From Antedon mediterranea (Eukaryota > Animalia > Echinodermata): a DNA stretch of 64,000 bases. How positions within the stretch are numbered: position 1 is the stretch's first letter; the number at the start of each line of letters is the position of its first letter. Positions 23,901 through 58,316 of this stretch are shown one piece after another. Position numbers and translations under genes: made by a program. The notes under the pieces are model-generated. The model made no database searches and was not told the DNA's origin. It worked only from the letters and a program-made list of their open reading frames with translations. The stretch is from the NCBI RefSeq assembly GCF_964355755.1, contig NC_092672.1:5456001-5520000 (forward strand), given 5' to 3'.

Positions 23901-26900
23901 TAATAATGTAAGTTGATGCATACTAAAATCAATGCCAATTTTAGGTTATTTAAGCTTGGTTCCCACTAGGGACGCAACTGAATGACACAAGTTGAACATA
24001 AGTAATTTGACCAATCACAAGCTATGGATTATTCAAACTGTCGCCTGTCATTGGTCAACTTTACTTGCATTGTGTCTACATCCTTGTGTATCTAGTTAGA
24101 ACCAGGCTAGGTAAAGGCAAAGGTTATATTAACTTCTACACCGTACATACACATGATAGCTTGTGTGTGAAGTAAGGTAAGGATATAATAAGTTTACAGA
24201 TCATAATTACTGTAGATGAGGTTCTATGTCATGGAAAAAAGTGTGCAGATTTGTTCTACCTGGTAAGGTAAGTATAAGGGAAAAGGATACCTACTGGGTA
24301 GCTGTTCAGATTAGCAATTGTGGTTTTTAGTGGTGTTGTATTTGCTATTTCAAGCGTTCCATCAAGCTTTTGTATACTGTTTATTCTAGAAAAAAAGTTT
24401 TTGTTGGAAATTTTTAAGTGCTGTCAGGTTTGAGTTGGTAATAATTTAGATTTATATAGGTCTGTAAATAAAAAAAAATAATTAAAAAAAAGGATTCAAG
24501 TTTAGGATGTCAGACAACAAACATACCAGTAATTGTTAAAGTACATAAGAAGTTTTAGCATTGAAAGACACAATAGTGGGACTTGAAATGAATACTTGAG
24601 ACATCTAGCACCTAAATTGAGATAGAGAAAAACAAGACAGATAGCAAGTGTGACAGTTTGTTGAATTCTTTTATAGATTAGGCACTCAGAGACACTTTTG
24701 GGCCAACCTACAAAAAACACATCATCATACAGTACCTACTATATTGCTCTTACCATCATTTACAATGCATTGATTAAGCAAATATATTTTATGCAATTCT
24801 ATATTAATGTTCGTATCTTATTCTACTTTATATCCCATCTTGTTTAACATTACTAATCCATGCAAATTCATACTGGATTCTTATTACCAATGAAGCTTCT
24901 GTTTTTGGTATCATTTCTGCATTTCATTTTCATCATGCCAATAGGCTAGTCATGTCATAGGCTGCCATTCTGACGTTCCTTAGCCATCTGCTTGGCTTGC
25001 ATAGTCTGCCTACAAATTGTAGAAATGCCCTGTACTTTGTATCAACCTCTACTTGGGTCTGGTCAGGTAAAGATGATGGGTGATCTAGGCCTGATGGCAC
25101 TTCAAGTACCAGATACATATGGTGGATCTGATCTAGATACTATGTCTTATGCCATTGCGATGGAGGAGATCAGCCGAGGGTGTGCAGCAACAGGGACAAT
25201 TTTAAGTGCTCACAATGTAAGTACCATATTGACTGCTATGAAAGAAACCAACGGCAACCGGTAAGATATTAATCATTATTGGTAGCCTAGGTCTGTATGC
25301 ATATGTATTTGTACTACTGTATGTCTCCAGTCAATACTATGAAAGAGGTCAGGTCATTGCTGTACATTTTGAGACTAGATGTGATTGATTTTGGTGTACA
25401 GCATTCATGTGTGTAAGTATACCTCATTTGTGAGTTTTTATTATTAGTGAATCTTAATATAAAATGTATAAAAACAAAAAATGTAAATAAAAATAAAATA
25501 CATGTAAAAACATATTGAACTATAAACACAATTGAATCTATGTGTACAACAATTTTTATTTAAACGTGAACTCATAACTGACTTTGATATGAATGTAAAG
25601 GAACATCATTAACAATATGACATCAACAACCATATGAATGACATCAACAACCATATGAATGACATCAACAACCATATGAGTGACATCATCAACCATCTGA
25701 TGAAGTGTATCCAGTAAGTCAGATACACAGAATTTTGCTTTCATACAAGGGTTAAATCGAATGAATTATTTTGATAATAGTTGTTTTTTAGTGAAAACAC
25801 TTCCTTTTCTTTCACTTGCAGTCATTATATTTATCACCAATAATGGAATTTGGAAATGAAGAACAAAAACAGAAATATATATCACCTTTTGTGGATGGCA
25901 GTCGTGTCGGTTGCTTTGGTCTAAGTGAACCAGGTATTGTAGAACCATTACATATCCAATATATTATTTAAGTAAATGTGGGGATAGCCTAAAACCCTAC
26001 CTTTCAACTTTTCTTTCTATGGTATTTTGTCTGCCAGACCATTCCATTTCAAAACTGAATGTAAATCAATATTATTCAGACAGTAATAAATATTATTTGT
26101 GACCAAATATGAATTTTAAGCATTACTATTATTATGATATTGCACTGAAGAAGAGTTTAGTGTTATCCAAAAGTTCTGCAACGTTTTAGCTTTCTGATTA
26201 TTTTATTTGTATCTCCATCCAGCCACTACTGATACCCACAGCATTTTCTTTTGATTTATAATTATGATATTATAAACAGTTAACTTTAAAATGTAACTGA
26301 TACACTGTTGAATAATTATTTAAATCAAAATAACAGCCATAACTGTCCAATCAGATGTCAGAATGTCACCGACCAATAAAATAACCAGCTTCTTTGAATT
26401 CTTACTTGAACCAACTCTTTTAGGTAATGGCAGTGATGCAGGCGCAGCGTCCACTACAGCACATCTGGATGGTGATCACTGGGTCTTGAATGGAACCAAG
26501 GCATGGATTACCAACGGGTATGAGAGCGAGGCCTCTGTCGTGTTTGCCACAACAGATAGAAATTTAAAACACAAGGTAATAAAATACAGTAGAACTCCTA
26601 TTAATGGGACATTTTTAGAACCAAAAATTTATTTTAAAATATAAATTTCCCCTCATTCTTTTCAGATAAATGTCCTGGTTGTTTTGTGTTGATTTGTCGT
26701 GTCCCATGTCCCGCTTGTCTTTGTCCCTTTGTTTAATGTCTGAGGCAGACCCTTTTCAAGGGTCCTGTATCTGGGAACCTGCTTTTTCCCAGATTTATTG
26801 TTATTTTTCTATGTTATTTCTTAATATTCCATTATTGTTTAAATCTTAAAAGGAAGTAAATAAATGTTATTTTGAATTGAGTGCAAGGTGTCCCCTTAAA

Positions 26901-30999: not shown

Positions 31000-33900
31000 T
31001 TATAATCCAAATTTGGATTTATATTTATTTAACATTTCTAAAGTTATAGAACATCCTCCACAAACAATGACCACTGCTGATTGGATAACAGTTTGTAACT
31101 TGCCCTGCTCTTGTAGTTTTGGTATTACATTGCTATAGATACCAGCGAGGGCGGCACCACATGCTGGCTCTACTAGAATTCTATGTTCATCTATAAAGTA
31201 TAGAACAAATTTGAAATTTAATTCTCAATATTATTATTTATTATTACTATTCACATGCATGCATTATGGTGGCTTGTTGAACCGTTTTATCATTCACTAG
31301 ATTTTCCATGATATCTCAATATACAAATAATGAATATTTATGAATGCAATAGTATAAATATTTTCATGGTGAGAATAGCACATTTCATTATTCACTGAAT
31401 GTAAATATTTGTTCCATTGCACGAATATAAACAAGTAGATTATTGTTTATTTTGAGGAGGGTCACGATTGCATATAACAAGAACGACCACTCATATATCA
31501 ATCCACTTGATGTTGTATGAGTTCAATGGAGCATGTATTTTATATCATGTTACCCACAATCATCAAATCAAATAATAACAATCTACTAAAGATAAAGATG
31601 ATGTATAAAATGAACATGGTCAGTCATTTTACTATAGATTGGTTTTGACTGGATAATTTTTTGACTTATATTGTGTGCAAATGTGTATGAGACGAGATGA
31701 AAAATGTGATGTGCTCATATGGACAGGATGATGTCATATATATAGAAGTCAGAACAAAGTAGTGTCCTACCTGTGAACCTGAGACAAGCATCAACAGCCT
31801 CCTTATCAGATATGACAACTGAATGCACCTCATGCTGACTGTAATAATCAAGGGCTTGCTGACATGCAGTCAGTGCTCCAAGACACTTGGCAACACTATA
31901 TAAAAATATGAAAGATTATGAAGAGGCATATAGAAGCTATTGCAGTGTGTTGAAAAGGCATACCACTGGTGCCTGATTAGACCCTCTACAGACCCACACT
32001 ATTCTTTCACCTTGGTTATATTAGATGTTTTGCCCTATTCTAACCAATGCCATCTAACAACAGGATGCTGAGCTCTGGAGATCAAAGGGTTTATCTGTGG
32101 CTGCGACATGATCAGTTCCATGCCCCTTAACAGACACCGCGCACCACATAGAACATGTACATAGTATAGTACTGTTGGTATTTGTCGCAGCCAGACATAA
32201 GATCAAAGGAATGTTACGATCGAGTTCCTATCTTAGCAAGGCGAGCTCAGTTTCCTGTTGTTAGATTGCCTGGTTCTGACATACATTGTATTTTATACCA
32301 ATTACAATTCAGAACATGCAAGTGATTTGAGTGGAACTTGACCCCACAACATCTAGAACACAAGCCTGGCAATCATATGTCTAGACCACCAAGATTGCAT
32401 TGATATCAAGCCCAATTTTAGCTCCCGATACAAAGTTACTTTGCAGTTTGTATAATACATACCTTGTTATGTCGTCTAGTGTTACCAACTCGCCTTTCTT
32501 AACAGCTGCATTGTAACAATCGGCTCCAACAGTCTCAATAGTAATGACAGGTACATCATTCCATCCAACCTTCTTTAAGCCCTCGATCACGCCACAAAAC
32601 AGACCACCACCTCCAACAACTGTTATCAGCACATCAGGCTTATGGGTCATGTCGTCTGCTATTTCTTCAATCATTGAACTATGACCCTGCCTGGGAGTAC
32701 AAGAATGATAAATTAGAAATGTATCAAAAAGTCAGTCTTTTTCATAACTAACAAAAATATATAAGGTAAACTAATACTATATATCAATGTATAGGTGTCT
32801 TAGTCTTAAGCTCTGTCTACACTATCAAACTAGTTTAAAAAAGTGTGCCCAAATATGGTAGTGATATGACATCACCATGTCCATATATGGCCACATCACA
32901 TGTTTTTGTCACATAAAGTTTGATAGTGTAAACAGAGCTTTAGAGGTACTCTTACCATATATCTGGATGATCAAAGGGGTGAATAATGGTGCCGTTTGAC
33001 TGACTAGCAATTTCTAACGCTCTTTTGTTTGCTTCGTCCCACACCTAAAACAACACAAATACAATCGGATTTTAGTTGACAGTACACGAAAATTACATAC
33101 TATATACATATTAAATTTATTCAGGTATATAGTAAAAACATGCAGCCAGAAGTCTGAAATTGTTGATTTAAAAAATATATTATTATTATTACAACTTGTA
33201 ATACCTTTCCATGATATTCTACTGTTGCGTTCTCATCTCTTAATTTTTGAGCTACAAATTCTGGTGTGCTTTTTGGTATGACAACTGTCGCTTTGACGCC
33301 AAGCTTTCTGGCTGCATAAGCTGCTGCTATCCCAGCATTCCCACCTGTATTTTACAACAATTCACAGCAAATTGTTTCACACACATTTATTTCAATGTTA
33401 TTGTTAGGCAGTAAATGTTGTATATCTATCCATTACAGTTGTATAAAGCTCTGTCTACACTATCAAACTCGTTTGACAACAAAAGTGTGTGCCCAAATAT
33501 GGTAGTGATGTGGCCAAGTGGTATGACATGTCCATTTGGGCACATCACATTTTTTTGTCACATAAAGTTTGATAGTGTAGACAGAGCTTTAGAGCAGAAA
33601 TACATGACAAAATAAATGATCTAACAACTTGAATAATTTGAACTTACCTGATGAAGAGACAATATGCTTTGAGCCTTTCTCAATTGCCTAAAAAAACAAA
33701 TACAAACATTTGAGCATAACTAGTAGGCTCTATTTACAATATTATGTTCGTACAGCATACTATACAGTTGATTCTATCCTTTTGCTTATACTCATAGAAG
33801 GCGAAATATTTATACAGTACCAATATGGACAACACCTATTTAGAGGATACCCTATTATAAAAGTTACACTTTGTTGAGTTCAAAAGGTGTCACTTTAAAA

Positions 33901-34224
33901 TAGAGTAAAAAAGTTTCAGTTTTTGTGAATGCATTTCGAAGCAGGGCAGGTGGGGTGAAGTATTTTCTTAAATATTAATTATATTAAATTATATGTATGT
34001 ATGTATGGATTGGTGGAATAAAATGTTATATTATACATTATCAAATAAGTGATCAAATAATTTACCTTTTTACATAAGTTTGAAATGCCACGTATTTTGA
34101 ATGATCCAGTGGGTTGGGTGTTTTCAAGTTTTAAATAAACTTTAAACGGAGCATGTTTAGAGAGTGCAGTGCTTTCTATCAATGGTGTACGAACATATAG
34201 CTGCTGTTTCTGTTTATCACTCAT
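31000..34224 (-). CDS. SDS: L-serine/threonine dehydratase (SDS/SDSL-like, PLP-dependent)
   Basis: Exons 34224-34066, 33687-33648, 33344-33205, 33044-32956, 32690-32463, 31895-31771, 31190-31000. Motifs: PLP lysine in KLENTQPTGSFKIRG, SSGGNAG, HPFDHPDIWQGH, VGGGGL, EPACGAALA and VIVCGG. Confidence 0.93.
32042..32275. mobile_element. MITE-like element with ~33-bp imperfect inverted repeats
   Basis: ATCTAACAACAGGATGCTGAGCTC versus GAGCTCAGTTTCCTGTTGTTAGAT. Confidence 0.6.
32809..32939. mobile_element. MITE family A copy
   Basis: Both TIRs present with TTA flanks. Confidence 0.8.
33447..33588. mobile_element. MITE family A copy
   Basis: Perfect terminal AGCTCTGTCTACACTATCAAACT inverted pair. 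Confidence 0.85.
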
Positions 34225-35003
34225 TTTGGAATACGTCTGTCGAGATTATATAATTATTGATTTAGGCCTAGGCCTATATAAAAATAAATATGTATCACTG
34301 TATAGTTACTTAATATCTATTTAATGTATTGTGTATTATGACATTATTTGCTATTATAACGCAAAGAATGTCAAGCCAGGCCTGTGCATGCCTAACTAGA
34401 CTGTAGGACACTCACGTCCACGACCACCACCAGTTACAGACTGCATTCCTCAATTATAGGCCTAAATAATATTAATATAGGCCCTAGGCCTAGGCCTAGC
34501 CTAGATCATAGGGCCTGGCTACCCTCCTTCGCTTAGCTGGCCTTATAACTCTGTTTGGCTAGCTCAATCATATACATATTAGGAATGAATAATGAGGCCT
34601 AGTAGTAGGCTTCACACCATTATAAATATGAAGAAAATGAAAAACTTCGACTATGAACTTACACACTTTATTAATCGATCAATTTGTTTGAAAACTGCGC
34701 CCTCATCTAGGTACCACAAATTATGTAATTAGGTGATGACGTAGTACGGTGATTCCCCCACCCAACACTCCGCCACTTCCTGGTCACTGCCACATGATGT
34801 AATATTATATTAATAAACTAAATTACTGTACTACAATGTAAATTAACCAGACCGTAATAATGAAAGGGGTAGACGGAAACTTAACTTAAAAAAACATTTA
34901 ATTGTTACTGGTATTTACTTGGTGTTAAATACAGTTTTAGATAAAGAGGAAATCCATACTTAGACTAGACAAGCACCACGACGAAGAAGTCGCATAAATC
35001 GTT
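34225..35003. promoter_or_regulatory. Probable bidirectional promoter region between SDS and UNC93A
   Basis: Divergent start codons 780 bp apart; GC-richer patch with ATGACGTA and CACTTCCTGG (CRE- and ETS-like) at about 34735-34785. Confidence 0.45.
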
Positions 35004-37261
35004 ATGACTAGGCCAAGTGAAACACCGCCTGTAACCCAGTCGACTGGACTCCATACCGGTAGGCCAATTGTGACATCGTCCCTACTGCCGAGGGCTAGAC
35101 GAAGGAAGACGTATTGGAAGAACCTGTTCGTTCTAAGTCTAGCTTTCTTCTTTGTTTTTACAGCGTATATGTCAATACAAAACTTACAAAGCAGCTTAAA
35201 CACTGAAGAAGACCTGGGAGTGATATCATTAACCATCGTGTATGGATCGGTTGTCTTTTCGTGTATTTTTATTGCACCGATTTTAATTAGAAAATTTGGC
35301 ACAAAATGGACTATGGCAGGCAGTATTGTTATGTATAGTGTATACACCGCTTGTAACTATTATCCAACCTACGGTACATTAATCCCATCATCATTTTTGA
35401 TTGGACTTGCCGCGGCACCTCTGTGGACAGCACAGGGCACATATCTGACGACATCTGCCATCAGTTTGGCAGACCTTACCAATGAAGTTCCGGAAACCTT
35501 GTTAAATCGCTTCAACGGTATCTTCTTTGTCATCTTCCAGTCAAATCAAGTTGTCGGAAATTTAATTTCCTCTTTAGTTCTGCAGCAGACGGATGAAACG
35601 AGCCCAAACAATACCGGTTACTGCGGACGTTGCAGTTGCAACAAGGCTTCTTCCAATAGTACTGGTGATAGTAGACAACCAGATAAGAGTCTGGTTAACA
35701 CACTGCTGACTGTTTACCTGGTGATAGGTATCATTGGGTTACTTCTGGTAGTGTTCTTCCTTGATACTCTGCCAACGTTTCAGTCATCTCGCATGGATAG
35801 AAGAGAATGTATGCAGAAGTGGTTGGAGACTCTTGGCATTCTACGGAACCCTATTCTTGTACTTTTGGTACCGTTAATGATGTACAGTGGCATTGAACAA
35901 GCATTCGTTGCTGGAGATTTTACAAAGGTGACATTATTACTATTCTAAGTTTATTTGAGCCCCATTGGCGTGTGCCCAGTAGGCTACTTCCCCTGCAATC
36001 CATCTCTCCTACGCAACACTTATGGCGGTGCCTGGCATGTTGCAACCTTATAAATGATACTTGTTGATCAGGGAAAATGATGCCTAAATGCTTTAGTTCT
36101 GCCCAATTTCAAAATCCAGCAGGATCTATCACTGACTCACTGTTAGTCAATGGTACTGTAGATCCTGTTATATTTTGAAATTGGAGGACATGGGATACAA
36201 GGCTGTAATTTCACTCTTCACTGGATTAACCTGTATCTTTCACATTGTATTTTACCAAATTTAGAAGGGGCGAGCTGGCTTTTAAAACATTACAATCCCC
36301 TTCCCTCTTCCGGATCTATTTCCGACTATAACCCTTTTAGTACATCAATCATATTTTTTTATTTACAGGCATATGTCACCTGTGCCAAAGGCGTTGAATG
36401 GGTTGGTTATGTAATGATCTGTTACGGAGGTGCAGACGCCGTCTCGTCGTACCTCCTAGGCCGCCTTGAGAAATACACTGGACGACTGATCCTCTTCTCG
36501 TTAGGTGGTTTAGTTCAGATGATCCTCATCGTAACCATGTATCTCTGGCACCCGAAGGCTGATGATGACATCTGGAAGTTTATGTTAATTGCTGCTGGAT
36601 GGGGATTTGGTGATGCTGTTTGGCAGACGCAAATTTGTTGTAAGCACAAAAAAACTGCTTATAGCAGCACTTTATTTTGAGTAAACGATTTGGCTTAAGT
36701 CAGTTTTACATTTTTCTTTCTTAAACTTTAGAGTTCATTCCATAAGATACGTCTTAATTTTCAGTTAAGCAGTGCGTCTTCTTAACTCTCTTGGTATTGG
36801 CAACAAGATTTTTTTTAAATGCCATATTTGGATTCCTCCTTTTTTATTTCTATTACGACATGATTCAAGTATAATTAAATCTCTCTGGACACATTTTTAA
36901 CCATATTTTTACAAGAATTGTGTCTAAACTCTTCAAATTTTTACAACTAAATTTAGTACTGATTATAAAAATGTTCATATACTGATATAAATTTATTTTT
37001 ATTTCAGCCATTGTTGGCGTACTTTTTCCTGACAAACAAGAGTCTGCCTTCGCTAATTTCCGTCTATGGCAATCCCTGGGATTCAGTGTGGCGTTTGCCT
37101 GTAGTATTCCCAACAACGTCTGTATCCACCATAAATTATTTGGCTTTGGCGGATGGCTAGTCATGTCAATGGTTGCTTACTACACTGTAGAAATCATCGT
37201 TCATCGCACCAAGCCTGGATATTTGGAAGTAAAGGTTATGGAATCAGATGCAATAGGCTAG
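35004..37261 (+). CDS. UNC93A: UNC-93-like MFS membrane protein
   Basis: Exons 35004-35927, 36369-36639 and 37008-37261. Motifs: KNLFVLSLAFFFVFTAYMSIQNLQSSLN, GLAAAPLWTAQGTYLT, YSGIEQAFVAGDFTKAYVTC, WGFGDAVWQTQ and AFANFRLWQSLGF. Confidence 0.92.
36101..36184. repeat. Short inverted repeat/hairpin (MITE remnant) in UNC93A intron 1
   Basis: CCAATTTCAAAAT..CAGGATCTA / TAGATCCTG..ATTTTGAAATTGG. Confidence 0.6.
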
Positions 37262-40193
37262 AGCGCTAGAGGAATCTTGGGTGCTGGGTGGGGGGGGGGG
37301 GGGGGCTGTTGGAGTTATTGTTTTTAATTACGGTTATATTGTGTTACAATAAATTTCCAAGAAATCTTTACTTGAATAACAAAAAAAATACATTCCATAC
37401 CTGTAATCGATCAACATAAACGTCAAAAAATGTAAAACGGTAGTGTGGTCATGTATAAAATTAGCTAAGTGTTATAGATTTGTTTTTAAAATTAAAAACC
37501 TAACACAAAAGTTGTTGTTGAATCATCAAACAACAATTGTTGGCCATATTAATGGTAGGCCTCGTGTATCTTTAAAGTTGTTAACTGTATGATCTGTGAG
37601 TGACCCTATTCTAGTAATCTACTCAAGTATCTGTTCTGTCGTCATAGCTGTATTAATATGTCGTTTATTACCAATTCTTTTGTAGATGTCAACTTTATCA
37701 ATGCAGTATCATTTGCTCTTTACTATTTAGTTTATTTAAATGACCAAAGGTCATTCTAAAACTAGCTAGTGTAACTTACCCTTTACAGTATTATACTCTT
37801 AAGGTTGTGTAATATTGAGATATACTGATAGTAGTATTGAAGTAGGCTATATATATTATATATATACATATTTATATAATGGCATTTATATAACATATAT
37901 ATAATAAATGTGTTTACCGGTTTAACTTTCGGCAGCTGCTTAGTATATTAAGTCTTAAATAATAAATGCAAGTTTATAACTAAGTTTGATATTTTTTAGA
38001 ATATTTGTAAAATAATTAATGTAAAAATCATATTGTATTTTGATAAAGACATTCTATTATACCTAATTCTTAGTTTTATGTGACGGGTATGTTTATTGTA
38101 GCTTATTATTATAATAATCACAAGAATAAAGAGAGGCTGAATACATTATTGCAAATATGAAACTTGGTTTTCTTTCTGTTATGTATACAGCCATCCGATA
38201 TGAATGAGTGTGACAAGTAACATCAAGAAGGCTTGAAATCAAATGTTCTTGGAAAAAATAACTTTGTAACCTATCGTCTTGAAGTCTGATAACCATTTAT
38301 ATATCTGAACTTAAATCTCTAATCCAGAAATTTCAAATTGAAAAAAATAGAAAGCGGTTTTCTTCTAATCGGTTTTAGCGGGAAAAAAGTGCTCAACGAA
38401 ATTTGACGATCGAGACCGGAATAATCAATTGTGGTTTCTAAACCGGTATTCACAATCGATTCGTTTTATGGGGACCAGTTTATTTTGGCAAGAGAACCGT
38501 TTAAAAAACCAGGTATTTTAAAGGCCAGGTGTGGGCAAAAAATTTCTATTGATCATACATTCCAAAAATTATCTTATTTTAGGGATTTTATTTGTGTTGC
38601 AGGAGCTTTTTGAAAATTAGCACTTTCATATCAGTGGGGGATAGTTCAAATTACACAGTAAAATCTCTATTCTTTTGTACACAAATTATCCACCGTATAT
38701 CCACCATCTTTTTTCACCTTCTAGGGAGTCATCAGACATGTTATTACATTATGTTAACTACCTAACTACTGAAAAAAAGTCTTCCTGGTTTTTTTGCCAG
38801 AATTTTGCCAAATTTTGTATTTGACCATATTAGGGGAAATTCATGGTTTTTCATCTTGATTTCTGTTACAAATATTTGATTTATGTACAAATAACCAAAT
38901 AGTATATTTAAAATTCATGCCTGTACCTGAGCTTTAAAGCTCTGTCTACACTATCAAACTTTAACAAAAAAAGTGTTATGTGACCAAATATGGCTGTGGT
39001 ATGATGTCATCGTGTCACTTAAAGTGTAATAGCTTAAGTTCGATTCTCTTGTTCAGTAAAAATTTGTTCTTGTCGCGCTTCCTGACTGGTTTTCTTGATC
39101 AACATTGGTAGCTTCCTATTCAAAAGTTGTTTTTCGACAATTTGGATTTTTATATAAACTATTATAGTACTTTCCTATGGCTGCTTCCTATATCCTTACT
39201 TTCACTCTAGGTCTTTGTCAAGTGGTGACGTGTGTTTAAAGGTCAGTGACTTTACAACTCTTTCAAATCGTCACAGGGGTACCGAAACTGTGTAAACCAT
39301 TTTCAAACAGTGCACGACGAATTTGATTACAAAGATTATTTTTCCATTTTTTCTAAAGTTTCCCGACTTTTATTCCAATATCGTACTTTTAACCGACTCT
39401 TGGAAACTTTATACCTATTTAAATGCTAATACCTAACAAAAAGAAGGAAGAGATAATAGCATCACACGTGTTACATAACCTTGGCATCACATGTGATACA
39501 CATGCGATGCTGTATTATACAGTATTACCATAATACTCATAACTATACATAGGCGTACATACATGTGGAGATAAGCAGTGTGGTGCTTCCAAATTGATAT
39601 ATTATAATGTTTCGTGTATAACTGTTAACCAAACATGAACATAACTAAATAACAATCTCGTGTCTGTACACGGCCGGTCTGTCCCGACCTAAATATTAAC
39701 GTTGATGCACAAGATAGGATAGGATAGGTCTACAGTAGGACTGGGTCCAGCTATTCATTTATCCTATTTGGCCTATATTTATTGGTATTATTGATTATTA
39801 GTAGGCTAATTAGTTATCAAAATGAAGGAGGCCTACTGGGAATTTTGAATCCGTTCTGAATAGGTGTTTAAACGGGTGTTTATACCACCCTATTTATAGA
39901 ATTTAATAGGAAATCAATACAAAGAATGGTATGTCAAATAGTTCAGCACATGACCAGAATGGTATCCTGTGAACAAATAGAAATAGGCACGGGATATTCC
40001 CTGTTGATTACCGTATATAAAGCAATTCGACTTGCACGTTTACCTTATAATCAACATACTGATTTGGTGCGGCTTCCTAAGGAAATAGTATGCTAATCGA
40101 ATACCAGAATACATTATCTAAAATTCAATTAGAGGCTTAATGCGTAGAGAAGTTTTACACAAGTAAAAGTCAGTGGCAGCTAACATCATAAGT

Positions 40194-42179
40194 ATGCCAC
40201 TTCACCCGGTATTGCGGGTAGCTTTACTGGGAGATGCAGGCGTCGGAAAAACAACGCTACTGCAGAAGTTTATGAAAGAAGATTGTCTGGTTACTAATGG
40301 AGATATTGCAGATACACAAGAGAAAGTTGTGGAGAGAAATGGCCGAAAAATTAAATTAGATATCAGAGATACAGCGGGTAAGTTTTCTTTCTAAATGTTA
40401 TCTATTCTATTCACCATTAAAAAAAAATATTCCCTACTTTAGCTGTGCAATAATACAAAATGTTTCAACAACATCATGAAATGAAGATAATAACTAAACA
40501 GTAGTATTATTCAGTTATATAAATTAATAAAATTGAAACAAAAATGAATAACATACATTACTGTCATGTGGTAATGCATTAAGCTCTGTCTCATCAAACT
40601 TTATGTGACAAAAAATGTGATGTGCCCAAATATGGTAGTGATATTGCCAAATATGGTAGTTATATGACATCATCATGTACATATATGGGCACATCACATA
40701 AAGTTTGATAGTGTAGACAGAGCTAATTATGTCAACTGAAATCAGTCCAATGACGACCTGTTTACTCAATAATAAAGATAATAAAAAGTATAGTTAAATT
40801 TTCCTGGTAAATGAGAAAGTTCGTAGAGAATTAATCAGGAATTGGGGACCGTTTGTAATATGGTTTAAAGGTTTATTAGAATAGTTTTAATTGTTTGCCA
40901 CAAATTAGAATGAACTAATGATTAGGACACCACTAATTAAGTCATTAATTAAGTCATTAAGTCTTTAGGACACCACTAATTAAGTTATGCCATATGATGC
41001 AACCGGACCATACCTTCAACGGTTATGTTTTATATTAGCTGTGGCCTATTGTCAGGAATAGAGTATAGTGTGTTGTGTTTGTGTTTCGTAATATTTATTC
41101 AACCAAGAAAAAACAAGTATAATAGTACATAAATATCTAAAATAAACATTTAACGTACTGTAACATAACAAGATCTGGTTAGAAGTAAAAAGTTGTCTCA
41201 CTCACACCCCTAAACAAAACAAAATATTATAAATTGTTGAATAAAGAAATATGTAGGCTCTAAACGCCATGTTTTAACCTCAACTTATATATGGAAACAT
41301 TAAAAAAAGAAGAATAAAGAAAAATAAAAACAACATACATTTACTCATGATATTTTGATAAATAATAATGTTTACATTTCTTTAAAATGGTTAAGGTTTT
41401 ACATTCAGTAAGTGTACATCTAAGTAATTCCATAAAGTTTTTCTGAGAAGGTTATGCACAATCTAACAAGTGGTACAAGCATCTTACGTGGATTTCTATC
41501 CAAATTATATTAAAAATCAAAATTAATTTGTGTAAAATTAACAATGACCTAGGAAGTTCAAACATTATTTTCTTTTAGGTCTTGAAAGATACAGAAGTTT
41601 AACACAGTCATATTATAGAGGAATTACGAATTTTATCTTCGTTTATGACGTCAACAACAAAGAGTCATTTAATAACCTTATGAAATGGTAAATATCGAAA
41701 TTATTTATTTGAATTTGTAGCCAAATGTTCATTGTGGTCCTCTATGAGAGAGGAATTAATTAGATCCGTGGTATCTACGACTAAAACGCCTGGCTCATCA
41801 ATTTGATAGGATTGAATTAAAGAATCAGATTATTTTTGATTTTTTTAAATGTATAAACTATGTCTTTTTTTATAGGTCTGAACAATACAATAGAAATTGC
41901 AATGATCCTGTAAACACCAATATTCTAATTGTTGGAAACAAACATCAAGAAGCCGATACAGACCGAGTACCTACCGAACAAGCCCGAAACTTTGCGAATC
42001 ATTTAGAAGCAGATTTCATCGAAATTAGTACAAGAAATAATACGAACATTGAGGCGTGTTTTTTAAGAATAGTCGATAATTACTTTGAAAGGCAAGGTAA
42101 ATGTCTGCGACGTATGTTTTCTACTCCATCAATAAAGCTGAAATACAAATCCAAGAAAAACAGTTGTTGCAGAACGTAA
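40194..42179 (+). CDS. Atypical Rab-like small GTPase (intact ORF)
   Basis: Exons 40194-40377, 41579-41687 and 41876-42179. G1 GDAGVGKT, G3 RDTAGLE, RabF-like RYRSLTQSYYRG and FVYDV, G4 GNKHQ, G5 EISTR, C-terminal prenylation-type CCRT*. Confidence 0.85.
40582..40723. mobile_element. MITE family A copy
   Basis: Same TIR and internal motifs. Confidence 0.8.
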
Positions 42180-45082
42180 TGAGACAGTACTAGGCCTACA
42201 GCTAAACAACTAAAAGAACACAAATCATGAAAAATGTAGTAAACGTGAATAACGTAAGGCATATAACGTACATAAATACTGTAGAAATATTTACAATCTG
42301 AGGATTGGTTACGAATACGGGTTAGCTCGATGTAAATGCTATTTAAACAAGTCAGAGATGTGTAAATAAAATTACTAAGAATTTAGATGATTGTCGTTGT
42401 TGTAAGTTATTGGACACCAAATAACACTTCTATGCTACTTTTCCGCCAGTAAAGGGGACAACAGCACACCATGCAGGCCGAAAAAAGGTCAGAGCTCCTA
42501 AAATCCGTTTAACTTTAGATGCTCTTCAGTCATCATGAAGGATTCACTCGCCTCGTTACAAGCTTGTAAAATATTCAAACACTTTTTTAATCGTAAAATG
42601 TGCTGCGATAGATAATTATGTCTTATTATCATTTAATATTATTAACTGATATCAATGAATTACTGTTTTTGTAAATAAACATTACTTTCAAATAACTAAT
42701 AACGTATTGTATGCTATCTTCCTAATAAAAAACAATCAATAAACATTACAAAGTCTACAATATAAAAATAACGGGTATTAGACTAGTCCAGATTTGAGAA
42801 AAATGAAATGCTGTAGGCATTTCGTGTTAAAAGCGAATAAACATATGTTTTAGGGTAATTTTGGGGTGCTGAATTCAAATTTGCTGTTTACCCGGCTCAA
42901 TTTTTAGATCTTCACCCTTAAAATGTGAAAAACAAAATGGCCGCCATTTCAGACTTATTTTGGCTTATAACTTGACTTTTAAGTGACGTAGCAAGTTAAA
43001 AATGGTGTCTATACCTATGTTTGTGATAGTGAAGATTCCAACTATATTGTTATTAAAGTTGAAAATATTCTATTTCAGCCGCCATGTTGAAATCCAAGAT
43101 GGCCGCCATTTTAAACGTATTTTGGCTTATAACTTGACTTTTAATTAACATAGCAAGTTTAAAATAGTTTCTATACCTATTTTTGTGATACTGAGGATTC
43201 CAAATATATTGTTATTAAAGTTGTAAATATTCTATTTCAGCCTCCATGTTGGAATTCAAGATGGTCGCCATTTAAAACGTATTTTGGCTTATAACTTGAC
43301 ATATAAGTAACATAGTAGGTTAGAAATGATGTCTATACAGTAGCAGTACCTATGTTTGTGATACTGAGGATTCCAAATATATTGTTTTTAAAGTTGTAAA
43401 TATTCTATTTCAGCCTCCATGTTGAAATCCAAGATGGCCGCCATCATTTTAAACGTATTTTGGCTTATAACTTGACTTTTAATTAACATAGCAAGTTAAA
43501 AATGGTTTCTACCTATAGTCCAGCAAAAGTATGGTTGAACCTAGAACAAATTGCAACATAATTTGTTTTTGTTTTTTCTGGTTGATATGGTCCAAATTAA
43601 CATCATATTCAAAGTTTACCAAAATCGGACATCGTGAAGTGGGTTCATTAGCATAAATTAAAAATGGCCGCCATTTACCATTTTGAAGCCCTGTATATTA
43701 TCTCCTTAACGGTTGGTTTTACTTATAGACCACCTACTGTAAGTGAATTACTATTAATTATTATTAATCAGATGTCTTGTTAATTTTGGACTGAACAAAA
43801 GATGCATGTTTCGAATTCATTCATAATTCATATCTTTGTTTCTTTGCAAGTACAGATCGTTTCTCATTCGAAATGCCATTGAAGATGTTGCCATTTGCTC
43901 TCCAGTGTTTTCTTCAACTACAGATTTTTCCACTATATTGCTTCTTCTGTCTTAAAATATTTTTTTAATGATTTTTAATACTGCTTGTTGTAGAAATTTA
44001 AATACTGTAATTAAGTACCAATTATCAATTTATTCACCATTTCAAATTATTTCAAATTCATAAAGATTTATAACAAATGCTGGTGTGGATGACATAAGAA
44101 CAAAGCTTGTTTACCGGTAACCGGTAGTGATGGCAAGTTAGAAAATTACCCAAACCCTTTGAATACCGTTGATATGCAGTATCTTTAACTGATGGTTCTT
44201 CATCCTTGTTGGCACAATATAATGTCCTTTATGCTCGATGAATCTTGGAAACAGCATTATAATATAAGCCAAAAAAGTTGTTGACTTGGTCACCAAACAG
44301 GTAAAATTCTGGCAATGAAATAGCAACTTTGATTGCAGATGAAGATGCTCACTTGTTATGCCAAAAACTGCAATATGACATTAGTTATTTCATGTGTCAT
44401 TTCAATTTTGGATGTTTCCATACACGTTTGATCCAATAGACTGGGGTAATAATGTTTCACAACATTAGGCGCTATATAAATCCACGATATTATTGTATGA
44501 AAACTATTAATTTGATATCTAATTATTATACTATAAATTAAACTTATATTTATGTGTGTAGGCCTACATTTTACCACTAATTGCAAAGCATATATAGCTT
44601 AATGTTTATTGCGTAATAATTGTTTAATAGGCTAGGCCGGCTATGTGCAGGTGTTCACAGGTCCCCAGGGCACAGAGAACTACATGCACAACAGGCCTAG
44701 GATATGCCCAAAAGCAAGGCAAGTCAGAAATTTATGCGAGGCATCGTTTAACATCATCAAAAAATGCGAGGCATCAGTTTATCATTTCCCAAAATTTAGG
44801 ATCGATTATTATTCTTTGAAAACAGAACAGTATCAGCAGTAACATATTACAGCATTTTTATTGACAAATTAACAAATATATTGAGATTAAACGTGTTTTT
44901 CACCAATAAATGCATGAGAAATTGACGCATTCCACTTTGTTTTAGTCCTCTATTATCATTTTGGCCGTGAAGCTAGTTAATTCTATTTCCTTATTCTGAA
45001 TTGAAGGCATTATATAATATAATACTGTAGATGAAAAAACCTCAAAACGAAACCTCTACTTCCTCTGGTATCCGGTCCGGCG

Positions 45083-45597: not shown

Positions 45598-48588
45598 TTT
45601 TTCTCATTCTCACAGGTTTCGTCATTTTTATTTTTTCTAATTAATTAAATTTCATTATATCGGGCGGATTACAATTTATTCTGTGATGTTTATATACTGT
45701 ATATATATATATTTTTTTTTCTCTTTTGTGGCGCAAACACTACTTTTATTCACATTCCTATTATCTCATGTCATTAAATCATATTATTTAACACATTTTT
45801 GTTAATTCCAAATGTCATCAGTAACATTTTTACATTTATGAATTCCGTATTACCTCCTTTTTTCATTAATTTTCTTATATTTTTCTAAACACTTGACAAT
45901 GATCATCATTATCATCTATCTCGATGTAAAATATTTTACACATAAAGAACAATCCCTTTGTGAGTTTTTCATTTTCGCACTTTGTTACTACCCTGTGTGT
46001 GTGTATTTAAAATAGGCGCCATCTTTGATTTCAACATGGCGGCTGTTTACAACTTTAATAACAATATATTTGGAATCCTCAGTATCACAAACATAGGTAC
46101 TGTATAGACATCATTTCTAACCTACTATGTTACTTATATGTCAAGTTATAAGCCAAAATACGTTTTAAATGGCGACCATCTTGAATTCCAACATGGCGAC
46201 TGAAATAGAATATTTACAACTTTAATAACAATATATTTGGAATCCTCAGTATCACAAACATAGGTACTGTATAGACATCATTTCTAACCTACTATGTTAC
46301 TTATATGTTAAGTTATAAGCCAAAATACGTTTTAAATGGCGACCATCTTGAATTCCAACATGGAGGCTGAAATAGAATATTTACAACTTTAATAACAATA
46401 TATTTGGAATCCTCAGTATCACAAACATAGGTATAGAAACTATTTTTAACTTGCTATGTTAATTAAAAGTCAAGTTATAAGCCAAAATACGTTTAAAATG
46501 GCGGCCATCTTGGATTTCAGCATGGCGGTTGAAATAGAATATTTGCAACTTTAATAACAATGTAGTTGGAATCTTCACTATCACAAACATAGGTATAGAC
46601 ACCATTTTTAACTTGCTACGTCACTTAAAAGTCAAGTTATAAGCAAAAATAAGTCTGATGAAATGGCGGTCATTTGTTTTTCACATTTTAAGGGTGAAGA
46701 TCTGAAAATTGAGCTGGGTAAACAGTAAATTTGAATTCAGCACCCCAAAATTACCTTAAAACACATGTTTATTCGCTTTTAACACGAAATGCCTACAGCA
46801 TCTTATTAGAGTGGAAATATGACTATCTGGACTAGTCTATATTGAACTTGGTATTACACCACAACATATTATCAGAGTAAAGTTCATTCACATAATACGA
46901 ACCTATTGGAGATCAGTTTCACCCTCCATCTAATTCCAATCGACCAATCACAAGCGGCAGATCATCTTAACTGCAGCTTGTGATTGGTCAAATTAGGTAA
47001 TTTGGGTATGGGTCATTACGTTGCATCACAACATATTATCAGAGTAAAGCTCATTCACAAAATATTGGGAGATCAGTTTCACTATTACTACCCTTCACTC
47101 CAATTGTGTTGTGTACAGCTCGTCACCCCACGTTATGAGTACTTTGTATGCTTTTTACAATCTGGTGTATTCACATATTAATTAAAATATTAGGCCTACT
47201 ACCGTATTCCCTTTTGACACATATATTAGTAAAAAGATCATCTTCTATTATTATAATAATATATAATAGGTAGCATAAATATATGTAGCCTAAATTATGT
47301 TAGGGGATTGCAAGATAATTGCATTTAATTGGCTAAGAGATAGACGAGCCACCATAATACTAATCTAAGAAACACATTGTACCCGTGAATACGAGCGAAA
47401 ATGGTGTAATGAATGGCGAAGTAAATCGTATTCAGTAAAGAAAAAAATACAAATATAGGTCGCCGCCTGGACCTAGGCCTATAGACCATGATACCTATGT
47501 AAAGGTGAAGAGTGCGCAAATCGAAAGCTCATACCTGCTGTTTGTTAGTTTTTAGTAAATAACAAGTTAAATAAAACACATGTATTAATATATATATTTA
47601 TATATAAAATACTTAATCATGTGTCTTTGCCATTTAAATTGCATTTTAATATTAACAAACAAAAAGGCAGCAGGAAATGGGAAAACATTTCACTATCAAC
47701 TTTCATACTAGAACATGGACACTCGCATTGTCGATATACATAATTACTAAAACCAGGTCATGTTGTGTGTTGATACATTGCATATGTTGTTATTGCAGTG
47801 TCTAATTTTAAATGTAAAACAATACCAACAATAATTGGAAAAAGTATTCCTAAATCGCCAAATTGTTTAGATTATGGAGATACGTGTAGCGTTTTTCCAC
47901 ATGTTATTCATGATAAATAGAGGACACTCTGCACCCGTTTGATGCTGTTATCATTCTGCCATTTGGTACCTTTCAACAGACTTTCAACTCTCTGCTTAGC
48001 AACAACTGCAATTTTTTTTCCAACTGTACGATATATCAGGTATGTTGTAATATCTTTAATTGCACATTAGAATATGATTTATTTTAATACTTTCAATTTA
48101 ATTATATTAAGTGCTGGGTAGAAAAAGAGTTAATGCCATGAATATAAGATAGAAATATGTAAAAATTAGAAAAGATGAAACCATATGTTAATGTAAAGCC
48201 TATTATTTGATAATAAAATAGTGTGACGTTCGACCCCATTTTTATAAATGTATTTGTAAATGTAAAAGTTAAAGAAGCCGAATGTTCTATAATAGGCTAA
48301 AGGATGGAAGATCGAAATCAATCATCTTATGTAAGCCTATATATACAATGTAAGCTATATTAATTTATGGGACCTACTTTTAACACTGGATCGTCATATA
48401 AATGAGAGGAAAATATGTTTAAACAAAAAAATAAATTTCTTCTCGGTAATAATACTTGAGAAGTACGGAACATTACATTTAAACATATGCCTCGACATAT
48501 CTTGCTCCCGTAATAGATGCATTTTCTTTGAAATATAGGTACCCAGCATTTTTTTTAAGCCATGACTTTTAACTTTTGGCAGGTCATT

Positions 48589-52938: not shown

Positions 52939-53764
52939 TCGTGTTTGGGTAGATGTCTATCTAGTATGCCTATTTTTAACCGACTAAAATGTTTAATAAA
53001 TCATACATGATGGCATTGATGATCCTGTGAAATGACGTAATTGAAGCCACCATGGGAATGCAACCTCTAGAACTTAGAATACAGGTAGTGTTACTGGGGG
53101 ATGTAGGCGTCGGAAAGACAACGGCTGTTGAAAAAGTTCATGAATGAAGATTACAAACATACTAGTGACATTCAAGAGAAAGTAATCATGAGAAATGGAC
53201 AAAAAGTTTGGCTGATAACTATAAGAGACACGGCAGGTAAGTTAACCAATTTTCTGCTTGATTTTTGTTTTCTTTTATGAATGTTTTTTTTATATTTGTT
53301 GTGTATTTTCTGATATATTTATTGAAGTGGTATATTTTATCTTTTATGTGCTACTTGGTAAGAGGATTCACAGGCTCTTGTCATAAGGATTTAGTTCCCT
53401 TTTGTGTTTCTTGCCAATTACTTTGTAATTGTTTGTTATTTGTTGTTGTTGTTGATTGGCAATAAAGAATAATAATTTTGCTAGTTCACTAAAATCAGTC
53501 ACAATTCTTATATACTACTATGATACAAGTTAATTTGCGTACAACAGTTGTATCCATCACATTTAATTTATAAATTCAGTTCTAATATTTTGTGTAGGTC
53601 TTGAAAAACACAACAGTATTACCACAATCATACTATAAAGGTGTCAAGAGGTTCATCTTCGTATATGACGTCAACAGTGCAAACTACTCCGTCAACAATG
53701 CGAACAACTCCTTCAACAACCTTCCAAAATGGTAATGTGTACAGTATTTGAATACGAATACGAA

Positions 53765-56700
53765 TACCCTTGCTCGCGTCTACCTACATCAACTAAATGT
53801 TCTAAATAGATTACCCTTGCTCGCGTCTACCTACATCAACTAAATGTTCTGAATAGATTACCCTTGCTCGCGTCTACCTACATCAACTAAATGTTCTAAA
53901 TAAATTACTCTTGCTCGCGTCTACCTACATCAACTAAATGTTCTAAATAGATTACTCTTGCTCGCGTCTACCTACATCAACTAAATGTTCTAAATAGATT
54001 ACCCTTGCTCGCGTCTACCTACATCAACTAAATGTTCTGAATAGATTACCCTTGCTCGCGTCTACCTACATCAACTAAATGTTCTAAATAAATTACTCTT
54101 GCTCGCGTCTACCTACATCAACTAAATGTTCTAAATAGATTACTCTTGCTCGCGTCTACCTACATCAACTAAATGTTCTAAATAAATTACTCTTGCTCGC
54201 GTCTACCTACATCAACTAAATGTTCTAAATAAATTACCCTTGCACACGTCTACCTACATAAACTAAATGTTCTGAATAGATTACCCTTGCTCGCGTATAC
54301 CTACATCAACTAAATGTTCTAAATAGATTACTCTTGCTCGCGTATACCTACATCAACTAAATGTTCTGAATAGATTACCCTTGCTCGCGTCTACCTACAT
54401 AAACTAAATGTTCTAAATAAATTACCCTTGCACACGTCTACCTACATAAACTAAATGTTCTGAATAGATTACCCTTGCTCGCGTCTACCTACATAAACTA
54501 AATGTTCTAAATAGATTACCCTTGCTCGCGTCTACCTACATCAATTAAATGTTCTAAATAGATTACTCTTGCTCGCGTCTACCTACATCAACTAAATGTT
54601 CTAAATAGATTACCCTTGCTCGCGTCTACCTACATCAACTAAATGTTCTAAATAAATTACCCTTGCACACGTCTACCTACATCAACTAAATGTTCTAAAT
54701 AGATTACCCTTGCTCGCGTCTACCTAAATCAACTAAATGTTCTAAATAGATTACTCTTGCTCGCGTCTACCTACATCAACTAAATGTTCTAAATAGATTA
54801 CCCTTGCTCGCGTCTACCTACATCAACTAAATGTTCTAAATAGATTACCATTGCTCGCGTCTACCTACATCAACTAAATGTTCTGAATAGATTACCCTTG
54901 CTCGCGTCTACCTACATCAACTAAATGTTCTAAATAGATTACCCTTGCTCGCGTCTACCTACATCAACTAAATGTTCTAAATAGATTACCCTTGCTCGCG
55001 TCTACCTACATCAACTAAATGTTCTAAATAGATTACCCTTGCTTGCGTATACCTACATCAACTAAATGTTCTGAATAGATTACCCTTGCTCGCGTCTACC
55101 TACATCAACTAAATGTTCTAAATAGATTACTCTTGCTCGCGTCTACCTACATCAACTAAATGTTCTAAATAGATTACCCTTGCTCGCGTCTACCTACATC
55201 AACTAAATGTTCTAAATAAATTACCCTTGCACACGTCTACCTACATCAACTAAATGTTCTAAATAGATTACCCTTGCTCGCGTCTACCTACATCAACTAA
55301 ATGTTCTAAATAGATTACCCTTGCTCGCGTCTACCTACATCAACTAAATGTTCTAAATAAATTACCCTTGCACACGTCTACCTACATAAACTAAATGTTC
55401 TGAATAGATTACCCTTGCTCGCGTATACCTACATCAACTAAATGTTCTAAATAGATTACTCTTGCTCGCGTATACCTACATCAACTAAATGTTCTGAATA
55501 GATTACCCTTGCTCGCGTCTACCTACATAAACTAAATGTTCTAAATAAATTACCCTTGCACACGTCTACCTACATAAACTAAATGTTCTGAATAGATTAC
55601 CCTTGCTCGCGTCTACCTACATAAACTAAATGTTCTAAATAGATTACCCTTGCTCGCGTCTACCTACATCAACTAAATGTTCTAAATAGATTACTCTTGC
55701 TCGCGTCTACCTACATCAACTAAATGTTCTAAATAGATTACCCTTGCTCACGTCTACCTACATCAACTAAATGTTCTAAATAGATTACCCTTGCTCGCGT
55801 CTACCTACATCAACTAAATGTTCTAAATAGATTACCCTTGCTCGCGTCTACCTACATCAACTAAATGTTCTAAATAAATTACCCTTGCACACGTCTACCT
55901 ACATCAACTAAATGTTCTAAATAGATTACCCTTGCTCGCGTCTACCTACATCAACTAAATGTTCTAAATAGATTACTCTTGCTCGCGTCTACCTACATCA
56001 ACTAAATGTTCTAAATAGATTACCCTTGCTCGCGTCTACCTACATCAACTAAATGTTCTAAATAGATTACCATTGCTCGCGTCTACCTACATCAACTAAA
56101 TGTTCTGAATAGATTACCCTTGCTCGCGTCTACCTACATCAACTAAATGTTCTAAATAGATTACCCTTGCTCGCGTCTACCTACATCAACTAAATGTTCT
56201 AAATAGATTACCCTTGCTCGCGTCTACCTACATCAACTAAATGTTCTAAATAGATTACCCTTGCTCGCGTATACCTACATCAACTAAATGTTCTGAATAG
56301 ATTACCCTTGCTCGCGTCTACCTACATCAACTAAATGTTCTAAATAGATTACCCTTGCTCGCGTCTACCAAAGAACTTATAACACAAGAATCTCCTGTTC
56401 TTCAATTTGCATTCAAAACACAGTATCGGAAGTACAGGGTTAAAAGGTCAAACTGGGCGACGCCATTTCACAGCATGGAGCAGCGCCCCCTCCAAACTAG
56501 GAAGTCAATTACTCTACCCCTCTAGAGTATTAGCAGATCCCCTCTATGATTTTGACTTTCTAATTTGATGCGGGCGCCCTACTCCTCAGTCAATTACTCT
56601 ATCCCCCCTAGAGCATTAGCAGATCCCCTCTATGATTTTGACTTTCTAATTTGATGCGGGCGCCCTACTCCATGGCTCACAATGGCGCCACCCATAGCTC

Positions 56701-57608
56701 TATTCTATCCCACAATGCCTTTCGAAATTGTTACGCGCTTCGGACGAACAGGAGATTCTTGTGTTATAAGTTCTTTGGCGTCTACCTACATCAACTAAAT
56801 GTTCTAAATAGATTACCCTTGCTCTCGTCTACCTACATCAACTAAATGTTCTAAATAGATTACTCTTGCTCTCGTCTACCTACATCAACTAAATGTTCTA
56901 AATAGATTACTCTTGCTCGCGTCTACCTACATCAACTAAATGTTCTGAATAGATTACCCTTGCTCGCGTCTACCTACATCAACTAAATGTTCTAAATAGA
57001 TTACTCTTGCTCTCGTCTACCTACATCAACTAAATGTTCTAAATAGATTACTCTTGCTCTCGTCTACCTACATCAACTAAATGTTCTAAATAGATTACTC
57101 TTGCTCTCGTCTACCTACATCAACTAAATGTTCTAAATAGATTACCCTTGCTCGCGTCTACCTACATCAACTAAATGTTCTGAATAGATTACCCTTGCTC
57201 GCGTCTACCTACATCAACTAAATGTTCTGAATAGATTACTCTTGCTCGCGTCTACCTACATCAACTAAATGTTCTAAATAGATTACTCTTGCTCTCGTCT
57301 ACCTACATCAACTAAATGTTCTAAATAGATTACTCTTGCTCTCGTCTACCTACATCAACTAAATGTTCTAAATAGATTACTCTTGCTCTCGTCTACCTAC
57401 ATCAACTAAATGTTCTAAATAGATTACCCTTGCTCGCGTCTACCTACATCAACTAAATGTTCTGAATAGATTACCCTTGCTCGCGTCTACCTACATCAAC
57501 TAAATGTTCTGAATAGATTACTCTTGCTCGCGTCTACCTACATCAACTAAATGTTCTAAATAGATTACCCTTGCTCGCGTCTACCTACATCAACTAAATG
57601 TTCTAAAT
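53765..57608. repeat. 47-bp tandem satellite/minisatellite, about 55 + 18 copies, in intron 2 of the Rab pseudogene
   Basis: Unit TTACCCTTGCTCGCGTCTACCTACATCAACTAAATGTTCTAAATAGA; no spacers. Confidence 0.97.
56369..56777. mobile_element. 409-bp non-autonomous DNA transposon, P-element-like, inserted in the satellite
   Basis: Perfect 32-bp TIR CAAAGAACTTATAACACAAGAATCTCCTGTTC; perfect 8-bp TSD GCGTCTAC (56361-56368, 56778-56785); internal ~85-bp tandem duplication. Confidence 0.9.
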
Positions 57609-58316
57609 CAATTAAAATCACGTTCGCCATATTGTAGCTTTTGTCAGTAAAACGCGCGATTCGTTAAAAACTTTGACCAAATTTGTATCGAAAAAAATGT
57701 ATTTACCTAAAAAAACTGTCATCTAAGGCAAAATATAGTCAAATTGGCTGCCAGCCAATGAGTTTTTGAATAAATTATAAGTGAAAACATTGATTTTTCC
57801 GGGTTTTTTTCTACGAAAGTGAGTAACTTTATTAAAACTACAAAATATTCTATTCAAAGTCTGATTTTATTTTTGGGGGACAATACATCTTTAATTAATA
57901 TAGGCCTAAATCAATTTATATTTCCGCAGGAATGATGAATGCAATAGATACTGCAGCGATTTCGATGAAGGTAACATTCCTGTATTAATAGTTGGGAACA
58001 AACATCAAAAGCACGTTAAGGACAAAGTGAGAACCGAACGAGCGAGACATTTGTAGAACACTGTTTTCTAGATTTCATCGCAGTCTCTACAGCCAATAAT
58101 ACCAACAACGACAAATGAATTGTCGATGAAATAATCAGGTCTATTGAAACGTTTGAAAATCATTTATCAAATATCGGTACAACAGATTACAAATTAGAAC
58201 CCGGTAAAAATAGCTGCTGTACACTTAATTAATATTTATGCAATATTGAATCGGATAACTGTCATGTATTTAATAATGCAGGCGAATTAGTCGGAGAGTA
58301 ATGTTTAATTTAAATA

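Follow-up and report, generated by a model that had tools for sequence, protein, structure and literature searches.

An atypical Rab-derived protein of Antedon mediterranea and its relatives with altered switch I and guanine-reading motifs

A three-exon gene in the 64,000-nucleotide stretch of Antedon mediterranea DNA analysed here (the window) encodes a protein that, judged from its sequence, descends from the Rabs yet departs from the switch features by which that family is defined. The canonical features that it does not display are the switch I Thr with the RabF1 element IGVDF, WDTAGQE, NKxD and SAK. The initial annotation considered this gene, which we call gene A, to encode a non-cycling or altered-nucleotide Rab-like protein, and that reading fits the sequence. 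Atypical and pseudo-Rabs are an established kind of protein, and gene A is a variant of this kind whose range is wider than was supposed at first.

Gene A is organized as listed below, with positions counted along the window.

40064..40193, + strand: 5′ UTR, its extent being the reach of a spliced contig (run X1, record 1, 40064-40376, 0 differences)
40194..40377, + strand: exon 1, with the P-loop GDAGVGKT (aa 13-20), a degenerate switch I (aa 29-41) and RDTAG; Pfam Ras 3e-8
41579..41687, + strand: exon 2, 109 nt, with Leu63 at the catalytic Gln position, switch II ERYRSLTQSYY, beta4 and alpha3
41876..42179, + strand: exon 3, with G4 NKHQ (aa 119-122) and G5 EISTR (aa 147-151); Pfam Ras 4e-10
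within 41876..42179, + strand: C-terminal part of exon 3, with a CIM-like IKL (aa 184-186), CCRT and the stop
42180..42805, + strand: 3′ UTR; X1 record 1 spans 41875-42805 with 0 differences

Exon 1 leads into a phase-1 intron placed in DTAG, the second intron is of phase 2 and interrupts the alpha3 Trp codon, both introns are GT-AG, and the joined exons (597 nt, 198 aa) gave an open frame from one of the two combinations tested when GT-AG splice sites were enumerated. The translation is 100% identical to the 198-residue A. mediterranea 'uncharacterized protein' XP_071945363.1 (P0001), which bears out the earlier claim of an intact three-exon frame with GDAGVGKT and a terminal CCRT. When exon 3 alone served as the query, the window's own protein was the sole match (1 of 20 candidates). 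The X1 contig, 1353 letters long at depth 68, aligns to 40064-40376 and to 41875-42805 with 0 differences in either part, and the 109 letters left over equal the length of exon 2, which points to splicing; X1 is taken to be an RNA run by guess only. Intron 2 is read through by DNA-type contigs, and the 3′ UTR contains AATAAA at 42365, 42674, 42724 and 42738. Gene A is a real and conserved gene that appears to be spliced and transcribed. Intron 1 harbours, at 40590-40730, one instance of a short palindromic repeat of very high copy number, built on a 21-bp unit, which also occurs near 605, 8546, 25617, 30882 and 60504 and whose contig depths add up to more than 300,000 in each of the three runs.

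The unusual motifs RDTAGLE, GNKHQ and EISTR are all present as first described, and switch I is indeed devoid of T-I-G-V-D-F and two residues short, the distance from P-loop to G3 being 37 in gene A and 39 in 71 of 99 reference Rabs. These references were obtained by thinning 360 domains at 62% identity, and 97 of them were parsable for some counts. Given that the G4 Asp is present in 99/99 references, and that just 2/99 combine two of the losses at W, Q, D and A and 0/99 combine more, the combination found in gene A goes beyond chance. Gene A is at most 43% identical to any reference Rab.

All three exons match Pfam Ras, and an AlphaFold2 model (mean pLDDT 83.7, pTM 0.79) adopts a Ras fold, with pLDDT lowest (<50) at switch I residues 32-35. 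Rabs are the best Foldseek matches (TMq 0.73-0.77), a further fold search aligned Ypt31 over 168 residues with Z 23.9 and an rmsd of 2.2, and the top PDB sequence matches are all Rabs. On sequence and predicted model, the protein qualifies as a small G domain of the Ras superfamily. Its RYRSLT, YYRG and FVYDV segments resemble RabF3-5.

A search with P0001 found an ortholog in Anneissia japonica (64% identity over 85%) with RDTAGLE, NKRQ and EVSTS, as well as sea-urchin relatives with RDTAGME, GTRCH and EISVE, and a Patiria relative was added from a 50%-representative library. A six-sequence profile then contributed proteins from Acanthaster, Asterias, Amphiura and Diadema and, more weakly, from Gigantopelta, Owenia, Pecten, Saccostrea (two) and Patella, together with three further proteins. 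From 375 proteins fetched, 18 members were picked by motif, four near-duplicate urchin proteins and two fragments having been dropped ahead of the counts. In the 18-member profile, all members but one fragment (17/18) outscore every canonical Rab, a ranking that is partly by construction. Relatives are present in at least four echinoderm classes; hemichordate, chordate, arthropod and cnidarian members were absent among the matches listed (the best 120 of 867, best 120 of 1982 and best 150 of 44785), and the ESM Atlas placed P0001 and P0291 in generic Ras/Rab clusters only. The automated names of the members are scattered (RABD2a-like, RIC1, Rab-3A-like, RYL1, Rab-8B-like and Rab-10-like).

The losses in switch I, G4 and G5 recur among these orthologs, as expected if the motif changes of gene A are conserved. 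The initial annotation regarded the family as lineage-specific. This holds for the exact signature of RDTAGLE, NKxQ and ST, which is confined to the two crinoids (Anneissia having NKRQ rather than NKHQ at G4), but the switch I, G4 and G5 losses are common to sea urchins, sea stars and a brittle star, and probably also to molluscs and an annelid.

In the comparison of the clade with the references, counts refer to sequences and not to independent events. The P-loop Lys and Thr are found in 17 of the 18 members, the 18th being an N-terminal fragment, and D59 and G62 of DxxG are found in all of them. Pairwise identity of the P-loop is 0.77 in the clade and 0.78 in the references, which comprise many subfamilies chosen by similarity to the query and are therefore not a like-for-like control for regional identities. 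Switch II reads ERxRSLTxS in 18/18 members vs 2/97 other Rabs. Switch I, by contrast, shows the lowest conservation anywhere in the clade (0.15, with ordinary strands and helices at 0.31-0.40): its T-I-G motif is found in 0/18 vs 81/97, and the region is 34-55 residues long, varying by up to 21. The F28-type aromatic survives in 2/18 vs 95/97 and the interswitch Trp (RabF2) in 5/18 vs 94/97. In the residues that read the base, Asn (4/18 vs 94/99), Lys (4/18 vs 98/99) and Asp (2/18, both of scallop type, vs 99/99) of G4 and Ala of G5 (0/18 vs 91/99) are largely gone. His or Gln occupies the G4 Asp site in 13/18 vs 0/99, and Asp or Glu lies two residues past the G5 Ser (G5+2) in 13/18 vs 1/99. 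Judged from these residues, the clade has a rebuilt nucleotide pocket and not a decayed one. Within it, the two crinoid proteins are atypical in having N-K-x-Q and a G5 with no acidic residue (STR, STS). The catalytic Gln is replaced by Leu or Met in 10/10 echinoderm-side members and kept in 7/8 of the others (7/18 overall). What is presumably the third aromatic of the triad is His in all eight non-crinoid members of the echinoderm side. At least two Cys occur in the last 45 residues of every member (18/18), and in 6/18 the final Cys stands 9-22 residues before the C-terminus. In these six echinoderm-side proteins (P0003, P0004, P0290, P0291, P0293 and P0294) a Cys cluster, often CxxCC, occupies this position, which is non-standard for a Rab; it may be palmitoylated or bind metal.

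The 18 members form a clade with support of 99/99 in a tree that includes 33 of the 99 references. With 36 references, among them 14 divergent decoys, the clade is again obtained at 99/96, the bootstrap being not fully settled, and its halves receive 90/81 (echinoderm side) and 86/63 (spiralian side). Within the clade, the crinoids are sister to echinoids plus asterozoans, matching the species tree; P0293 is placed on the echinoderm side by tree position alone. When the trait columns (switch I, W58, L63, G4 and G5) were removed, leaving 130, the clade was not recovered with 36 references: Owenia falls out and four references fall in. Given that the clade is lost under these conditions, yet the data do not reject it (AU p=0.366), the members from different phyla are likely, rather than demonstrated, orthologs. 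No tree resolved a sister Rab subfamily, and the crinoid stem branch is long (1.37-1.45).

A second copy of the gene, copy B, lies downstream in the window and has the following parts.

53052..53236, + strand: pseudogene B exon 1, with the P-loop, a +1 frameshift, a stop at 53145-53147 and RDTAG in another frame
53598..53731, + strand: pseudogene B exon 2, with a +1 frameshift and a short tandem duplication
53757..57608, no strand assigned: 47-bp satellite, 82 copies, filling pseudogene B intron 2
57930..58228, + strand: pseudogene B exon 3, with GNKHQ, then frameshifts and stops, and a remnant KNSCC tail

The initial annotation took copy B to be a diverged paralog. It does carry RDTAG|LE, GNKHQ and ST, but it is a frameshifted pseudogene, and a role as a second functional family member was rejected because of the frameshifts in exons 1, 2 and 3. 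The first of these lies just past the P-loop and the stop follows 31 codons from the ATG, and X2 and X4, two runs of one sample that is possibly the assembly's own, have DNA-type contigs that span copy B exon 1 with 0 gaps and 0 differences. The three-exon plan is common to both copies (185/134/299 in B vs 184/109/304 in A), and the G5 of copy B, AVSTA, has lost its Glu. Over 173 aligned codons the two copies differ by dN 0.30 and dS 1.10. The resulting dN/dS of 0.27 (bootstrap 0.15-0.43) is not near 1, and purifying selection has therefore acted on at least one branch of the pair; together with the apparent splicing and transcription of gene A, this agrees with what the initial annotation expected of a working gene. 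At 150 sites compared with the Anneissia ortholog, 28 are shared by A and Anneissia only, 21 by A and B only and 7 by B and Anneissia only. Copy B is therefore the fastest-changing of the three. An unspliced X1 contig (57818-58404) extends over copy B exon 3, for which X1 and X2 also contain an allele with an 8-letter insertion; X1 depth is low over exon 1 of this copy and was not counted as evidence. Within the satellite, an insert of about 400 bp at 56370-56780 has terminal inverted repeats and an internal 86-bp duplication, and looks like a MITE from its sequence.

The window as a whole is animal DNA with a high AT content. One long open frame (48559-50937, + strand), measuring 793 aa from stop to stop and containing the zona pellucida domains ZP-N and ZP-C, sits between gene A and pseudogene B and is partly covered by X1 contigs, some with many differences, hinting at paralogs. 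A lone full-length 5S rRNA match (61720-61840, - strand; 65 bits, Rfam RF00001) adjoins a 17-bp tandem array at 61838-62178 and may be either a 5S copy that has dispersed or a repeat derived from 5S. The following neighbours are usable as synteny markers.

985-1864, - strand: BCL7 exon match
8093-8449, + strand: SWIRM domain match, below cut-off
15256-19434, + strand: DC-STAMP exon match
22299-26641, + strand: acyl-CoA dehydrogenase exon match
32384-34245, - strand: PALP enzyme exon match
34998-37258, + strand: UNC-93 exon match
59917-60339, - strand: GLOD4 exon match

Literature searches by member accession and gene id, and through echinoderm and sea-urchin Rab surveys, retrieved no description of the group, subscription papers lying outside their coverage; a search on the G4 of IFT22 gave no match. 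The group may be included in a survey of sea-urchin small GTPases from 2006 and in a Rab phylogeny from 2012. Among known proteins, Rab25 has a natural Q->L and the same DTAGLE as gene A and keeps its other G motifs; identity with Rab25 was rejected, and Rab11-like references branch apart from the clade. Among named proteins with solved structures, the clade profile scores a Q->L mutant of Rab3 highest (198 bits), followed by Rab1 (189) and Rab8 (186). Gene A resembles these Rabs of Klopper group I in fold, in a RabF3/RabF4-like switch II and in the Cys tail, but has no T-I-G-V-D-F, interswitch Trp, G4 Asp or G5 Ala. Rab3 orthology was rejected because Strongylocentrotus purpuratus has a separate canonical Rab3; the Rab3 reference is outside the clade in both full-column trees and inside an unsupported group when trait columns are removed.

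One sea-urchin member, matching P0003, does appear as StPu_Rab3a in supplement S7 of Klopper 2012 (PMC3425129, in part; here and below, 'in part' marks a source represented by a portion of its content). There it occupies one row of the group IV alignment, RDTAG occurs once in the nine Klopper files as available, and the accessible main text has 0 matches to 'Rab3a' and does not define the subfamily. The same survey holds canonical StPu_Rab3 and StPu_RabX4 as separate entries (PMC3425129, in part), and RabX4 identity was rejected because the urchin has this separate RabX4. RabX6, an invertebrate Rab1 derivative lost in vertebrates, is also divergent, with Met or Ala at the Gln position, but in the rows available it keeps the G4 Asp (7/7) and has another switch II (RYRSLT in 0/7), and identity was rejected on these grounds. 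EhRabX10 and EhRabX3 of Entamoeba resemble the clade in keeping G1, having no G2 Thr and altering G3-G5 (PMC8514894, in part); EhRabX10, as described there, is from an unrelated lineage and keeps the G4 Asp with a broken G3, whereas in the clade G3 and switch II are hyper-conserved and the Asp is lost. RabL5/IFT22 is likewise a highly divergent Rab-like protein devoid of the switch II Gln, but it is pan-ciliate and has neither RabF4/F5 nor prenylation, whereas gene A has RabF4/F5-like motifs and a Cys tail (PMC5902210, in part). More broadly, AAGAB contains an established pseudoGTPase domain (PMC12490416, in part), p190RhoGAP, Rnd and CENP-M are pseudo or atypical GTPases (PMC10211241, in part), constitutively active small GTPases have been reviewed (PMC13236570, in part), and many RabX proteins are still unclassified in Rabifier (PMC3192815, in part).

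We give about an even chance to the reading that the product of gene A is a Rab-derived adaptor that is anchored by lipid, binds NTP weakly, does not switch and works through switch II. Nucleotide would be held weakly via the intact phosphate site, and a fixed switch II surface would be offered to a dedicated partner. The proposal starts from a Ras/Rab fold, as modelled, in which the P-loop Lys-Thr and DxxG are intact and the switch I Thr motif and all three guanine contacts (F28-type aromatic, G4 Asp, G5 Ala) are lost. The retention of the phosphate/Mg site over a long time span suggests that nucleotide still binds. We infer every nucleotide step by analogy with Ras/Rab point mutants: HRAS D119N lowers nucleotide affinity and A146T raises spontaneous exchange (PMC8936000, in part), and the corresponding residues of gene A are Q and T. 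Thus G4 D->Q and G5 A->T would permit fast, GEF-independent exchange, with the site tracking the cellular NTP pool, and a protein devoid of switch I, the triad Phe and the interswitch Trp would not relay its GTP/GDP state. Effectors, REP and GDI all bind Rabs on a shared surface made up of switch I, interswitch, switch II and the aromatic triad (PMC5902227, in part). Given that switch I and most of the triad are lost, the surface that signals state to these partners would be removed; standard effectors and GDI would presumably bind poorly, and the near-invariant ERxRSLTxS switch II may be the working interface. The Cys pair is predicted to be lipidated (geranylgeranyl or palmitoyl), which would put the protein on a membrane, and activity would be set by expression and location rather than by a cycle. 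Judged by its letters, CCRT fits the XCCXX geranylgeranylation form (PMC5902227, in part). REP binds via RabF1-F4 and the CIM, with a minimum of nine residues from CIM to Cys (PMC5902227, in part), and prenylation of gene A is uncertain because RabF1 is gone and eight residues separate IKL from the first Cys. Counting against the non-switching reading, EhRabX3 is described as hydrolytically active although it has no G2 Thr (PMC8514894, in part).

The consistent G4 His/Gln and G5+2 Glu/Asp of the clade look like a new specific pocket, which argues against a merely weak one. Altered base preference is therefore the main rival, an unlikely one in our judgement: the pocket would be rebuilt for another base, making the protein an ATP-preferring or base-promiscuous Rab-derived NTP-binding protein or NTPase. 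The paired charge change at G4 and G5+2 and the invariant phosphate site speak for it. So does the precedent of SpoIVA, an ATPase derived from an Era-like GTPase, and of engineered Era, in which loss of the NKxD Asp with a G5 SxE gives ATP preference (PMC7952092, in part); 13/18 members resemble SpoIVA in both motifs. SpoIVA, however, is bacterial and polymerising and, as described there, keeps a sensor Thr that the clade does not have. The two scallop-type members retain the G4 Asp, and the case is weaker for the crinoid protein itself, since gene A and its crinoid ortholog have no acidic G5 or SxE and keep N-K. The acidic G5 residue might instead re-read guanine, as such a residue reportedly does in IFT22. 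Xanthine preference, raised in the initial annotation, is documented for D->N (PMC7952092, in part), but our searches found no literature on D->Q or D->H, and xanthine specificity was rejected because D->Q has no such support. A still bolder and unlikely extension is that a bilaterian-ancestral Rab subfamily swapped its guanine readout, with G4 Asp becoming His/Gln and G5 Lys becoming Glu/Asp, to yield an ATP-preferring or base-blind, switchless membrane NTP sensor. If so, a Rab-type protein running on ATP would have been kept in echinoderms, molluscs and annelids.

We also consider it unlikely that the protein still cycles as a GTPase with its own GEF, GAP and effectors fitted to the odd motifs. 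P-loop, DxxG and switch II are intact, and the crinoids keep N119 and K120. The Q->L change, first taken as evidence of impaired hydrolysis, proves to be the weakest clue, because 7/8 spiralian-side members keep the Gln and because TBC GAPs supply the catalytic Gln: they give Arg and Gln in trans, a Q mutation in Rabs costs only 3-10-fold, and Ypt1 Q->L is still inactivated (PMC3919269). Against cycling, all three base contacts are changed, and switch I, variable in length and with no conserved Thr, leaves the protein devoid of a gamma-phosphate sensor. A nucleotide-free (class i) pseudoGTPase scaffold similar to AAGAB, which binds its partner through an altered G5 loop (PMC12490416, in part), would suit the degenerate base-reading motifs and is quite unlikely, because GK[T] of the P-loop and DxxG equal those of working Rabs in conservation, in echinoderms and spiralians alike, which is hard to explain if the phosphate and Mg are not bound. 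The decay of copy B next door and the long crinoid stem branch might suggest that gene A is itself a decaying Rab duplicate with no special role. This reading is very improbable and largely refuted by the intact frame, the spliced contig, the dN/dS, the 64% ortholog and the relatives that branch as the species tree in at least four echinoderm classes.

The catalogue of animal Rabs is usually regarded as close to complete. Should the clade prove real, it would constitute an old animal Rab subfamily that was overlooked because its members have been found only in non-model invertebrates. The group would also be a natural experiment on which residues a Ras-fold protein needs for nucleotide binding and sensing, with the phosphate site and switch II fixed while switch I and the base pocket are rewired. 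S. purpuratus has one member, so binding assays, localisation and knock-down would be feasible in that species.
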